IMG/VR virus record: IMGVR_UViG_3300049187_000061
Coordinates: 1-26,690 of that record
Direction: 5' to 3' (one strand)
Origin: a virus
Taxonomy: Duplodnaviria; Caudoviricetes
Length of the DNA stretch: 26,690 nucleotides
Made by a program: the position numbers and the translations under genes. Below, piece after piece: positions 7,367-26,690 of the stretch. The notes under the pieces were generated by a model, which was not told where the DNA came from, made no database searches, and saw only the letters and a program-made list of their open reading frames with translations. How positions within the stretch are numbered: position 1 is the first letter of the stretch; each line of letters starts with the position of its first letter.

Positions 7367-7852
7367 ATGGCAGGCATCGGCTATACCCAGGTTCTGACGC
7401 GGGGCATCTCCCACGTCACCGCGACCCCGACCAACAAGCTCGGGGACCGCGTTCTCTTCGACGGCGGCGACTACGTGTACGTCCTCAATCGCTCCTCCGA
7501 CCTCACGGCCAAGGTGGGCTATGCGATGGTCGTGAGCAACAACACGGACTATTCGTGCGTCATCTCCGGGACCACCAACATCGGCGCCGTTGTCGGCGTG
7601 GTTCATCACACCGACATCCCGGTCAACGAATACGGCTGGATCCTCTCCCGAGGCATCGGCTATATCGCGGCGGGCAACAACACTGGCCTCGCGGTGAACG
7701 ACATGGTGGTGTTCGTCGGTACGAGCAATACCGGCAACCTCTCCCGGCTCCAGCAGCAGACCGTCTATTCCAACAGCCCGACCCCCAGGATCCACGGCGT
7801 GGTGATGGTGGCGACCGGGACCGGCGGAATCGGCGAGGCCCTTTACTTCTAG
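7367..7852 (+). CDS. Capsid decoration/cement protein
   Basis: ATG 7367 after AAGGA; directly follows MCP; LGDR...YVYV, VGVV..DIP..EYGWI..RG beta-rich pattern of post-capsid decoration proteins. Confidence 0.65.
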   Translation: MAGIGYTQVLTRGISHVTATPTNKLGDRVLFDGGDYVYVLNRSSDLTAKVGYAMVVSNNTDYSCVISGTTNIGAVVGVVHHTDIPVNEYGWILSRGIGYIAAGNNTGLAVNDMVVFVGTSNTGNLSRLQQQTVYSNSPTPRIHGVVMVATGTGGIGEALYF

Positions 7853-7927: not shown

Positions 7928-9064
7928 GTGAACCCTGTGAATCCTCCCGCCCCTCAGGCGGTGTATGTGTCGCGGGTCAACGGACAGGCATTCGAATCCC
8001 AGGAAGCCTTGCAGGCGCACTATGCGCAATGCAAGTACCTTCCCGAGGGGGCGATCGTCCTGTACCCGGAGTTTCAGAGCTACATCCCCGCTCCTCCCGC
8101 AAGGAAAGAGGATCTGCGGGCAACGTACTCTCGGAACGACGAGATCACGGTCAATTCCTGGCTGCCGGAGTGGCGCGGAAACAAGAAAGCCAACTGGCAG
8201 GCTTTTGACGTTCCCGGTAATTCGGTCCTGACCCAGCATGCGAAATGGGCCTACAAGCCCGTGATCATCGCCGGAGCGGGACCGTCTCTCAAGCGGAACG
8301 CGCATCACCTGTTGAAGCGTGGGGGCATGGGGCTTGTTTCCTGCCTCCACAACTTCGGCTTTTTCCATGACCTTGGAGTCAAGCCCGACTACTACCTGAA
8401 CCTTGACGCGGGAGACATCACGATCCCGGAGATGGCACAGGGTGGGAAGCGGGACGAGGAGTACTACTGGGAGGCATCCAAGGATTACACCCTGGTCACC
8501 GCCCTCCATTGCAATCCGAAGCTCCACAAGAAGTGGAAGGGCAAGATCCTTTGGTACGACACCTACCTCCAGGGGCTGAACGAGGCCCTGGAGGCTGAGT
8601 GTCCAGGGATCTCGGACTTCCGCATGTACTTCCAGACCGGCGGGAATACCCTCGGCGCCTGTCACTACATGGCCAAGGCCATTCTCGGGGCGTCTCCGCT
8701 GGTCTTTGTCGGGGCGGACTTCAGCTTCTCCTACGATAAGAAATTCCACCCCTTCGACACCCCCTACGACAAGCAGTTTGCGGGCGTGGTCCCCTGCCAT
8801 GACGTTTTCGGGAACAAGGTGGCGACTTGGCCGAGCTATTTCGGGTTCAAGGCGTGGTTCGAATGCCAGGCCCTCGGCGGCCAGGGGAATACGCCCGGCA
8901 CCTACATCAACTGCACCGAGGGCGGAATCCTGGGAGCCTATGCGGACGGCAATATCATGCAGATTGCCCAACGCAAGCTCTTGGATGTCATAACCGAATA
9001 CACCCTGCATGAGATGCTACCCGGCCTGGTCGCGGATAAATCCCGCATCATGCTGCTGTACTAG
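7928..9064 (+). CDS. Maf/DUF115 (MptE-like) family protein, putative CMP-nonulosonate glycosyltransferase
   Basis: PVIIAGAGPSL, GVKPDYYLNLDA, GGNT..A...A..ILGASPLVFVGADFSF and YINCTEGG motifs characteristic of motility-associated factor/DUF115 proteins. Confidence 0.8.
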   Translation: MNPVNPPAPQAVYVSRVNGQAFESQEALQAHYAQCKYLPEGAIVLYPEFQSYIPAPPARKEDLRATYSRNDEITVNSWLPEWRGNKKANWQAFDVPGNSVLTQHAKWAYKPVIIAGAGPSLKRNAHHLLKRGGMGLVSCLHNFGFFHDLGVKPDYYLNLDAGDITIPEMAQGGKRDEEYYWEASKDYTLVTALHCNPKLHKKWKGKILWYDTYLQGLNEALEAECPGISDFRMYFQTGGNTLGACHYMAKAILGASPLVFVGADFSFSYDKKFHPFDTPYDKQFAGVVPCHDVFGNKVATWPSYFGFKAWFECQALGGQGNTPGTYINCTEGGILGAYADGNIMQIAQRKLLDVITEYTLHEMLPGLVADKSRIMLLY

Positions 9065-25214: not shown

Positions 25215-25417
25215 TGCGCGGCCCCCTGCTCTTTGCCCTGGTTCTGGCGGCCTGTAGCGGCGGCCGGCCCCTGGAGTACACCGACGACCCGCCTGCCCCT
25301 GTGGACAGCTCCCGGGCGCTCCAGGAGGCCCTACAGCGGGCCCTGGACAGCCTGGAGCGGGAGCGGTGCAAACCGCCTACTTGCTACCCGGATCCGAAGC
25401 CTCCCGCCCCTCCGTGA
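25214..25417 (+). CDS. Small Pro-rich lipoprotein (o-spanin-like architecture)
   Basis: TGATG coupling; signal MRGPLLFALVLAA-C lipobox; 67 aa with Pro-rich, two-Cys tail. Confidence 0.6.
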   Translation: MRGPLLFALVLAACSGGRPLEYTDDPPAPVDSSRALQEALQRALDSLERERCKPPTCYPDPKPPAPP

Positions 25418-25723: not shown

Positions 25724-25755
25724 AGTATACGAAATTTGATCAAATTCGGTATACT
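25724..25755. promoter_or_regulatory. 32-bp AT-rich imperfect palindrome, candidate operator
   Basis: AGTATAC-GA-AATTTGATCAAATT-CG-GTATACT, upstream of an HTH gene. Confidence 0.6.
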
Positions 25756-25794
25756 GCCTACACAAATCGCCTCTTGTACGTATATTGAGTCAAG

Positions 25795-26217
25795 ATGTCG
25801 GCTCAAGCGGAACTCGGGAAACGTGAAATTGCGCAGGGGTTGCGGCGCGAAGCTCAAAAACTGCTCGTTCAGGCCAAAGAGCTGGAGTCAAAGGCCGCTT
25901 CACTTTTCCAGTCCGCCGCCATCCTGGATGGCCATGAGGTCCAGCTCAATTTACCCCTCGACCCGGCGCCCATCGCCGACGGCGGGCCACCCCCGCCGCG
26001 AGCCCCGAAGGGTACGCGCCGTTCCCAGGTGAGGGGCCTGATTCTGCTTGCCGGCCCGCTCTCGCGCGCGCAAATCCGGGAGCAGACCGGTATCCCCAAA
26101 GGTACCCTGGATCACCTGCTGAATGAGAAAAACGGATTCCTCCCGATGCCGGACGGCCGGTGGGATCTGATGCCGGACAAGGCCAATGAAACCGCGGAGG
26201 ATGTTCTAGGGATATAA
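25795..26217 (+). CDS. Coiled-coil plus C-terminal winged-HTH DNA-binding protein
   Basis: N-terminal heptads, Pro linker, GPLSRAQIREQTGIPKGTLDHLL...DGRWDL wHTH pattern; TATATT 8 nt before ATG. Confidence 0.7.
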   Translation: MSAQAELGKREIAQGLRREAQKLLVQAKELESKAASLFQSAAILDGHEVQLNLPLDPAPIADGGPPPPRAPKGTRRSQVRGLILLAGPLSRAQIREQTGIPKGTLDHLLNEKNGFLPMPDGRWDLMPDKANETAEDVLGI

Positions 26218-26220
26218 AAG

Positions 26221-26252
26221 AGAAAACCCACCCGGATAGGGGTGGGTTTCTC
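26221..26252. terminator. Intrinsic terminator, possibly bidirectional
   Basis: AAACCCACCC-ggatag-GGGTGGGTTT 10-bp stem immediately after the HTH gene stop. Confidence 0.7.
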
Positions 26253-26258
26253 GAAGGT

Positions 26259-26332
26259 GGGCCGTTAGGTTAACTGGTAAACCAGGTGTCCTCCCCAGGC
26301 GCCAAATGTCGGTCCGAACCCGACACGGTCCA
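26259..26332 (+). tRNA. Atypical tRNA-like gene: CCC anticodon, Ala-type acceptor stem
   Basis: Acceptor GGGCCGT/ACGGTCC-A; D arm GGTT-AACTGGTA-AACC; 6-bp anticodon stem GGTGTC/GGCGCC with loop CTCCCCA; T arm GTCGG-TCCGAAC-CCGAC; followed by CCT. Confidence 0.7.
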
Positions 26333-26446
26333 CCTTTAAACAATACTCGATTCCAACGAATCCGGCAATACAAAGGATGGTGATTATGCTAAATGCCATG
26401 CCGCCCCTCGCGTAGGCGCGTGAGTTCGGCGGGATACAAATAAGAC

Positions 26447-26490
26447 GGCCCCCGGTAGATTTATGCCTTGCGAGCGGTCTACCGGGGGCC
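26447..26490. other. 13-bp perfect hairpin between the two tRNA-like genes
   Basis: GGCCCCCGGTAGA...TCTACCGGGGGCC plus two G.U pairs on the plus strand. Confidence 0.75.
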
Positions 26491-26517
26491 CAGCCTGTTA
26501 CAGCCCGAGAAGTGTTC

Positions 26518-26585
26518 GGGGGTAGCTTGGTGCAGGCGAGGGCTCTAGATCCGTCCGCCCGGCGGTTCGAATCCGCCTACCTCCA
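26518..26585 (+). tRNA. Atypical compact tRNA-like gene: CUA (amber) anticodon, Ala-type acceptor stem
   Basis: Acceptor GGGGGTA/TACCTCC-A; D arm GCTT-GGTGC-AGGC with no connector; bulged anticodon stem GAGGG/TCCGTC with loop CTCTAGA; canonical T arm GGCGG-TTCGAAT-CCGCC; followed by GCA. Confidence 0.65.
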
Positions 26586-26690
26586 GCACTTTTCGTATCC
26601 AACAATTTATCCGATTTCGCTCCAGATTGCAACGCTCCAAATCCACGCCATTAAAACCCGCCTCCCGGGGAGGTCTAGGGGGTGGGGGTC

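Follow-up and report, generated by a model that had tools for sequence, protein, structure and literature searches.

Transfer RNAs whose identity disregards the anticodon have been described in soil bacteria as allo-tRNAs and as the polycistronic irregular tRNA0, tRNA1 and tRNA2 (Mukai et al., PMC5389517; this and the other cited works were compared in part, and statements about them refer to those parts). Their anticodons are diverse, G3:U70 examples occur among them, they are linked to transposases and toxin-antitoxin (TA) genes, and they form tandem genes; in all of this they resemble the RNA family reported here. The G3:U70 allo-tRNAs insert alanine and a serine-identity allo-tRNA killed E. 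coli, while some irregular tRNAs are charged yet unused in translation (PMC5389517). Allo-tRNAs have 8/4 or 9/3 folds with a long variable arm and a long D stem, whereas members of the present family have 7/5 folds, are 67-70 nt long and possess neither element. Family members adjoin Mukai-type RNAs at two loci (a Leu-body UUA RNA at L335 and an E-loop-type RNA at L402). Four D-element motifs of the family gave 0 matches in a term search of the supplement to that study, and an antisense partner is absent from the passages compared (PMC5389517).

Enlarged anticodon loops and missing D stems also have precedents. The sufD qtRNA-Gly-GGGG and engineered qtRNAs (PMC9094753), like yeast mitochondrial tRNA-Thr(UAG) (PMC3113583), share with the family four bases between U33 and A37. 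An alanine qtRNA stopped growth (PMC9094753), and the yeast tRNA indicates that an 8-nt loop can read triplets and need not shift frame (PMC3113583). The 8-nt-loop tRNAs in the passages compared have normal bodies and other identities, and no +1 target was found for the family. D-armless mitochondrial tRNA-Ser and the synthetic mini HisT indicate that a tRNA can lose its D stem and still be accepted for charging, by EF-Tu and by the ribosome, and a tRNA without a D arm is active in E. coli translation (PMC11551756). According to the same 2024 paper, all known bacterial tRNAs are cloverleaves and natural armless tRNAs are mitochondrial only; the family differs from the latter in keeping a D hairpin of 2-4 bp with GG, besides a canonical T loop.

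Two further classes are close. The TLD-only tmRNA of phage DS6A and the CDS-less organellar tmRNAs, like the RNA designated RNA2 below, are ~65-70 nt long and have an alanine acceptor and T arm but no D stem; DS6A alone is named as a phage source in the parts compared (PMC4131195, PMC11915505). Unlike a TLD-only tmRNA, RNA2 has neither the tmRNA D-loop nor the GAC connector, and a tRNA-type loop ends its long helix. Type VIII TA systems (CreTA, SdsR-RyeA) consist of two small RNAs lying within 200 bp of each other on the same or opposite strands, and would be the nearest likeness if the toxin reading developed below is right; note that CreT sequesters a tRNA and depends on CRISPR-Cas, whereas the toxin proposed here is a chargeable tRNA mimic (PMC10767807). 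The type VIII layout of two adjacent pairing RNA genes is found in the family; in the window the pair is a candidate only. C4 (P1/P7) and CI (P4) are processed phage RNAs of tRNA-like shape that recognize a target RNA through loop pairing. Unlike these, the family has no Rfam C4 match, carries alanine identity and has a partner that looks like a separate short gene.

The window analyzed here is the whole contig (26,690 bases) of a podophage-like virus, in which terminase, P22/SU10-type portal, capsid and adaptor genes lie on the plus strand; its best sequence matches are soil metagenomes, and no RNA dataset appears among the matches listed. The virion gene block contains an MptE-like/MAF-type protein (7928-9064). 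Both RNAs lie within the last 450 bases, behind a 140-aa ORF, among the following features:

25725-25754, no strand assigned: imperfect inverted repeat just 5' of the promoter, read from the sequence, a possible operator
25759-25786, plus strand: sigma-70-like promoter match (9/12), 8 nt ahead of the ORF start
25795-26217, plus strand: 140-aa ORF, likely with a C-terminal winged helix-turn-helix (HTH)
26223-26250, minus strand: hairpin 5' of RNA1, resembling a terminator on this strand (z -3.9)
26259-26332, plus strand: RNA1, an irregular cloverleaf with alanine acceptor (G3.U70, A73), trailer CCT
26291-26297/8, plus strand: RNA1 anticodon loop with CCC(C)
26447-26491, no strand assigned: long hairpin between the RNAs (z -4.9), with a U-rich tail after it on the minus strand
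26506-26517, plus strand: RNA2 5' leader, pairing with discriminator and trailer (26585-26596) at -13.2 kcal/mol
26518-26585, plus strand: RNA2, 68 nt, member of the D-stemless alanine-identity family, trailer GCA
26525-26533, plus strand: RNA2 mini D element
26534-26560, plus strand: RNA2 long irregular anticodon helix, abutting the T stem
26543-26550, plus strand: RNA2 loop
26619-26646, minus strand: candidate antisense partner of RNA2, whose letters 26646 to 26634 pair over the loop without a break (13 pairs, 4 G.U)
26650-26677, minus strand: possible promoter of the candidate partner (TAGACC, 16 nt, TTTAAT), found by eye

The promoter scan gave 1 match, against 0.3 +/- 0.5 in shuffled sequence. 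The 140-aa ORF has no match in Pfam or PHROG and 2 relatives at 63-70%; compared with ESM Atlas structures it resembles IclR/MarR-type HTH proteins at TM 0.39-0.48, values that serve as a lead only. It is a possible regulator of the RNA genes. No homologue was found in the flanks of RNA family members, and no loci came from neighbor-based searches that used the 140-aa or the 812-aa protein. In run X1 the read depth falls from 94 to 51 at 25246-25415 and other contigs diverge at 25415, so that the HTH-RNA block looks like an accessory region. The hairpin at 26447-26491 would end an antisense transcript crossing RNA2, and the RNA2 leader would extend the acceptor helix until processing. The last codons of the HTH gene (26203-26217) include CTA and GGG, which are codons that the two RNAs would read. 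A cognate codon at the end of the upstream gene was rejected as a family rule (2 and 5 of 62, versus 4.8 and 4.5 expected).

RNA1 and RNA2 each have a perfect 7-bp acceptor stem, a 5-bp T stem and the tRNA-Ala identity set (G3.U70, A73, G1-C72, G2-C71), and a scan for this acceptor/T-arm combination matched twice in the window and never in 300 doublet shuffles. AlaRS identity resides in G3.U70 and A73, and the anticodon is not read. A preliminary description of this DNA had listed these shared positions, together with trailers CCT and GCA and a 7/5 fold unlike the 8/4 or 9/3 of allo-tRNAs; all were read in both RNAs, and neither has a long arm. Its expectation that structure would favor the plus strand was borne out, as the top half pairs on that strand with probabilities of 0.6-1.0 in RNA1 and 0.9-1.0 in RNA2 and the minus strand has no such fold. 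It had also spoken of two cloverleaves. RNA1 is one, if irregular; RNA2 is not, having no U8/R9 linker, a D element of only 2 bp and no variable loop. Neither has the full canonical set of linker, D stem, 5-bp anticodon stem, 7-nt loop and purine 37. Nor are they a pair in the sense of one family, since RNA1 scores 15.6 bits and RNA2 73.4 bits (E 5.5e-16) with R1, a model of the RNA2 family built without RNA2. Other soil runs confirm the letters: RNA2 is fully covered in X2, X5 and X6 with 0 differences, and RNA1 is covered by X6 and X2 together, except position 26292, also with 0 differences; reads of runs X4, X7 and X8 do not cover the RNAs.

RNA1 is called tRNA-Gly(CCC) by ARAGORN but falls under the Rfam tRNA (RF00005) cut-off. 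Its T stem and 3' acceptor strand are identical to those of an annotated tRNA-Ala of phage Mendera. The T loop carries C55, and the anticodon arm has one base too many, which places C at position 37 in the 7-nt reading. Folding energy prefers the 7-nt loop (-28.7 vs -24.8), so that the 8-nt loop favored for RNA2 and its family is disfavored by energy here; the triplet is CCC in either register, as had been proposed, and the CCCC of the longer reading is the sufD anticodon (PMC9094753). BLAST of RNA1 gave a 27-nt tRNA-Ala match and weak matches in phages and none in plasmids, and the homologue pattern reached RNAs with a gap of 50-62, RNA1's own gap being 49, so that relatives of RNA1 length lie outside its reach. 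An unannotated tRNA(CAU) of Vibrio phage QD01 (L096:301-380) has a D arm like that of RNA1. By analogy, RNA1 is likely a full-cloverleaf form of the functional class of RNA2, reading GGG or GGGG.

RNA2 belongs to a real and widespread RNA family that is uncatalogued in Rfam; the function of the family is predicted. ARAGORN does not call RNA2, even at -ps90, and in Rfam it comes closest to the tmRNA ends, with 26.2 bits where 47 are required; at 68 nt it has no tag reading frame. Over the last 31 nt it agrees with a phage tmRNA at 30/31 positions. It departs from the family in C51-G63 and a mismatch at the base of the arm. The most likely loop has 8 nt (C-U-C-U-A-G-A-U); a 7-nt reading gives a canonical-looking CU-CUA-GA loop that is 1.7 kcal/mol worse. 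The CUA anticodon of the preliminary description is therefore one of two registers and the less favored, and the codon predicted from the loop model is CUA or CUAG (8-nt register) rather than UAG. A likeness to tRNA-Pyl (G73, a 3-nt variable arm, a 6-bp anticodon stem, CUA) was rejected, as RNA2 has A73 and no variable loop (PMC7609411).

Family members were collected with pattern scans that fixed G3, U70 and A73. The viral scan yielded 46 unique RNAs, about 21 with RNA2's build by eye; the genome scan yielded 115 (21/64 parts scanned; about 370 stretches estimated) and the metagenome scan 75 with RNA2's D motif, the latter two sets together comprising 183 unique RNAs. Carriers are phages, IS elements and chromosomes of Patescibacteria, and record titles name Patescibacteria groups, Acidobacteriota, Alphaproteobacteria, Actinomycetota and Verrucomicrobia. 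Base pairs covary strongly across the family, whose members lack both the D stem and the variable loop and have an anticodon loop that varies and mostly measures 8 nt. For the alignment and model R1, 45 hand-picked 68-nt members were used, which align without gaps and from which RNA2 was left out. In these, 94.1% of cells are paired, 14 pairs show two-sided changes, and the covariation score was reached by 0/500 shuffles. Two-sided changes occur in the acceptor, the T stem and the 5-bp helix abutting the T stem. From core to loop the helix appears to comprise about 8 pairs plus an internal loop, roughly the length of a D plus an anticodon stem.

CCA is encoded in 53/183 members, and leader-trailer pairing averages -3.87 versus -2.53 +/- 0.13 when permuted (n=182). 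G51-C63 is present in 171/190 rows; this pair has a role in EF-Tu binding. In two sets of 20 loci Rfam returned nothing but tRNA at cut-off, and one member, L422, reaches 33.7 bits as tRNA. Records for 45 of 80 capsid-related loci (13/45 of them >=90% complete) were searched with the model, and the 1 match, at 32 bits, resembles the 3' part of a long-arm tRNA. No family member was found among those 45 related phage records. No description of the family or of the RNA pair was found in the literature searched, with incomplete coverage of subscription papers.

Transposases lie near many loci (IS1/IS240-like at 26/163, IS1595 at 24/163), as do some TA genes; no nuclease or defense gene recurs in the neighbor clusters. 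A recurring cassette places an HTH_3 gene divergent from the RNA (L231, L280, L307, L314, L342, L401, L440, L456), with a Gp49/HigB-like gene in 3 and an IS1- or IS1595-type transposase following in most. Other identity-mismatched tRNAs, with Leu-, Ser- or Arg-like bodies as judged by eye, often adjoin family members (L438, L384, L276, L433, L416, L436, L468, L487, L335, L402). Phage tRNA-Ala(UGC/GGC) genes in tRNA clusters (L140, L161, L139, L202, L007, L247 and others) have no U8/R9 linker and a short D hairpin; such linker-less genes are a plausible structural ancestor of the family, whose simplest origin would be a tRNA-Ala with an expanded anticodon. Also found was a full phage tmRNA of 87 bits overlooked by ARAGORN (L008:1498-1898, minus strand).

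That alanine identity is kept while the anticodon varies, as first proposed, was examined with a model search that favors G3.U70 but does not demand it: in the class of G047, 22/151 genomes matched with 44 matches, and all 40 that were read have G3.U70 and A73 (27 short members, 1 irregular cloverleaf and 12 ordinary tRNA-Ala). In the phylum of G046, 6/151 genomes matched; one was the seed and one, unpublished, was left aside, and of the other four, all new, 3 had the pair. A3-U70 occurs in two second copies located near members. Homologues of RNA2 found with the covariance model thus retain G3.U70 and the fold as the anticodon changes, and alanine codons are avoided: loops of the 8-nt class correspond to codons for Asp, Gly, Val and Arg, and to Ala in 2/89. 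Given these features, charging by AlaRS and CCA maturation are predicted for these RNAs.

The ends of the loop follow tRNA rules, with U and A invariant and four bases between them in 45/45 members. Closure 25-34 is Watson-Crick in 34/45; closure 25-33 is so in 18, with 17 G.U. Energy prefers the 8-nt loop in 29 and the 7-nt loop in 12 of the 45, and a 7-nt reading would place C at 37 in 32/45 members, compared with 4/581 ordinary tRNAs. Over 183 members, 80 allow only the 8-nt register, 27 only the 7-nt register, 9 both, and 67 have no clean register.

Many members lie beside a putative gene for a short RNA whose 5' end is complementary to the loop. A perfect complement of >=10 nt was found on the same strand in 40/212 members (1.6 permuted) and on the other strand in 23/212 (1.1 permuted). 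With G.U allowed and a score >=12, 54/179 members have such a partner, versus a background of 0.9%. All of these partners (54/54, against 18% in background) lie behind TAnnnT, which would be their own -10 box, and for most of the 14 inspected a terminator-like hairpin follows within 75 nt. In 35/35 the paired stretch takes in the loop. Another 121/179 members score <10 for any partner yet keep fold and loop. Partner and transposase are mutually exclusive, an IS1/IS1595-type element being nearby in 0/54 members with a partner and 44/121 without.

In G160 all six copies have their own 15-16-nt partner, one copy being a full cloverleaf like RNA1, whereas the two normal tRNA-Ala genes of that genome, used as controls, have none. 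Each G160 partner starts right at the loop, with GAC in five of six and GAT in one. The cloverleaf at G160:C1:204256-204329 (minus strand) has G3-C70, A73, a GUC anticodon and its own 15-nt partner, a normal tRNA-Asp being encoded elsewhere; the anti-tRNA module therefore extends beyond alanine identity. Three full cloverleaves with G3.U70/A73 have anticodon arms that are broken or not for alanine: L240:1999-2071 has a perfect 14-nt partner, L097:401-471 and L148:401-471 have none.

For RNA2 itself the candidate partner starts 61 nt past the 3' end; in 10 family loci opposite-strand partners start 62-77 nt past the RNA end. Pairing is worth -29.2 kcal/mol, a value reached by 2/178 other arms and 3/249 other windows, and a second site of 9 pairs lies at 26627-26619. 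Note that this pairing (p about 0.01) is wobble-rich and was found after the family test. The putative -10 box lacks A at position 2 and is not called by the promoter scan, and the 11 close relatives checked have partner scores <=9; for these reasons the RNA2 partner is a candidate only. It is overlapped on the minus strand (26607-26651) by a Trp-rich ORF of 14 codons that has a ribosome-binding-like site. A plus-strand partner at 26667-26680 was rejected as being at chance level (21-47% of permutations). For RNA1 the best pairing in the spacer is 5 pairs, and scores within 150 nt are <=8.

The reading that we favor, though we give it somewhat less than an even chance, is that the RNA is charged with alanine and acts as a toxin, by mis-decoding or frameshifting, under the control of an antisense antitoxin, toxicity being predicted. 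The RNA2 transcript would be processed by RNase P and given CCA, AlaRS would charge it with alanine regardless of the anticodon, and EF-Tu would carry the alanyl-RNA2 to the ribosome. There RNA2 would either place alanine at a codon for something else or cause a frameshift. This action would likely be toxic and is probably kept in check by a small antisense RNA, the putative antitoxin, that is predicted to cover the loop. In this virus a minus-strand transcript starting near 26646 and converging on RNA2 would supply the restraint, and the upstream HTH protein possibly adds repression. Such a module would act in addiction or abortive infection by means of RNA alone. That a separate RNA is devoted to hiding the loop implies a loop that does the work and has to be restrained; this, with anticodon-blind charging, the CCA and T-stem features, the avoidance of alanine codons and mobile carriage, makes the toxin-antitoxin reading the likeliest. 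A broader form, in which programmable D-stemless alanine tRNAs with four-base anticodons are each silenced by a co-evolving anti-anticodon RNA, as a protein-free toxin-antitoxin system that phages and IS elements disseminate and that is amplified in Patescibacteria chromosomes, is put forward tentatively as unlikely in full. Pairing has no direction, and the partner could be the effector.

Decoding should leave traces, and several were sought. At +1 junctions, cognate four-base words numbered 8 observed versus 18 permuted (n=86), giving no +1 target; transposases beside members are single ORFs, one with a -1 break. Cognate codons are marginally rarer in flanks (p 0.07, n=57). In G160, where six copies share one loop, codon reassignment was rejected, as GAC still aligns to Asp and ACA/ACG to Thr, and GAC-purine is not depleted. 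That genome has no tRNA-Thr(UGU) gene, probably due to incompleteness, since tRNA-Tyr is missing too. With no programmed target found for the family and, in G160, a normal code, tmRNA and SmpB, the RNAs do not recode constitutively. Replacement of tmRNA was likewise rejected, since 5/5 family-bearing genomes have normal tmRNA and SmpB. This lack of a decoding footprint in G160, and the lack of a partner for RNA1, count against the toxin reading.

The same G160 result favors the main rival, which we consider unlikely though clearly the strongest: a stable tRNA-body scaffold, processed, alanylated and protected by EF-Tu, with a U-turn loop for RNA-RNA recognition that regulates or sponges a partner or leader and does no decoding, in the manner of C4 and CI. 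Perfect pairing of 15-18 nt that co-varies with the arm is what such a scaffold would show, and 67/183 arms lack a clean register. Since G160 partners begin GAC or GAT at the loop, the conserved loop bases may reflect the partner start site. However, the partners inspected are short and mostly terminated, the 121/179 members scoring <10 for a partner retain fold and loop, and a pure scaffold needs neither avoided alanine anticodons nor tRNA-like loop ends.

It is quite unlikely that the RNAs are charged but do no decoding and serve as decoys for anticodon nucleases or other toxins directed at tRNAs. Same-loop copies in one genome (six in G160, four in G141) suit a decoy, as do a loop identity of 0.74 among copies, versus about 0.4 for stems, and loops that often resemble those of ordinary tRNAs and whose enlargement could make the RNAs safe. 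A decoy does not, however, need an antisense RNA hiding its loop, no nuclease or defense neighbor recurs, and some loops are AUC or ACC in the 8-nt register; to our knowledge these anticodons match no usual bacterial tRNA. This option and that of non-ribosomal alanyl donors, both raised at the outset, fit the data less well than does a cognate antisense RNA aimed at the anticodon loop.

It is improbable that the RNAs are beneficial mis-decoders, RNA2 as an amber suppressor (UAG to Ala) and RNA1 reading Gly GGG as Ala. The small energy penalty of the CU-CUA-GA loop, two TAG stops in frame with the next gene (6416, 19222) and clean 7-nt loops with stop anticodons in some members would permit suppression. 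The family nevertheless favors closure 25-34, with C37 in most members under the 7-nt register; stop anticodons are not enriched (10 vs 8.3), and none of the 45 related phage records searched has a member. Phage genes are whole under table 11, TAG is an ordinary stop and no needed read-through was found, so that the UAG-to-Ala proposal is weak. A CTAG at 7849 was rejected as a target, being a stop that overlaps a ribosome-binding site.

Decayed pseudo-tRNAs or integration scars are very improbable as an explanation of both RNAs and unlikely for RNA2, but for RNA1 alone decay or a scar is an unlikely outcome with appreciable weight. The 3' ends of tRNA and tmRNA genes commonly serve as att sites. 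RNA1 has C55, an odd anticodon arm, no partner and no homologue found, and neither RNA encodes CCA. Compensatory changes across the family, intact 5' and 3' acceptor strands and leader-trailer helices speak against decay, and there is no integrase match among the window ORFs tested.

It is most doubtful that RNA2 is a TLD-only tmRNA titrating SmpB, as proposed for phage DS6A, even though tmRNA ends are its best Rfam match and it shares 30 of its 31 terminal nucleotides with a phage tmRNA. The UCGA-type D loop and the GAC connector are tmRNA motifs. Both occur in the 14 TLD-only RNAs from the viral collection (11 assigned by rule, 3 by eye) and are absent from RNA2, which retains a tRNA-type loop; the tmRNA and SmpB of the 5/5 genomes neither support nor need an SmpB role. 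As an observation in its own right, TLD-only mini-tmRNAs are common in phages, making up 14/109 unique short alanine-identity RNAs in 5/64 viral-collection parts (L203, L102, L111, L112, L120, L178, L108, L192, L162, L115, L127, L173, L156, L170) and 3/5 matches of another scan (L001:1501-1578, L002:1501-1580, L004:1501-1578). Private alanyl donors for a non-ribosomal transferase are scarcely credible: anticodon-independent charging and a non-standard body would suit them, but there is no Fem/MprF-like gene in the window or among recurring family neighbors, G51-C63 is kept, and the loop is under selection and has antisense partners.

In its identity mismatch the system resembles allo-tRNAs and in its layout type VIII pairs, but it does not fit allo-tRNA, tmRNA or TLD-only tmRNA, tRNA-Pyl or canonical tRNA. 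The family would be a natural bacterial and phage near-exception to the cloverleaf rule, mostly missed by standard annotation. If the toxin reading is true, it represents a new kind of RNA-only toxin-antitoxin module and explains identity-mismatched tRNAs on mobile elements, a question left by the allo-tRNA work. It would further supply natural scaffolds, numbering in the hundreds and each carrying its own off switch, for quadruplet or alanine-inserting suppression. On the scaffold reading, too, it is an uncatalogued RNA pair.
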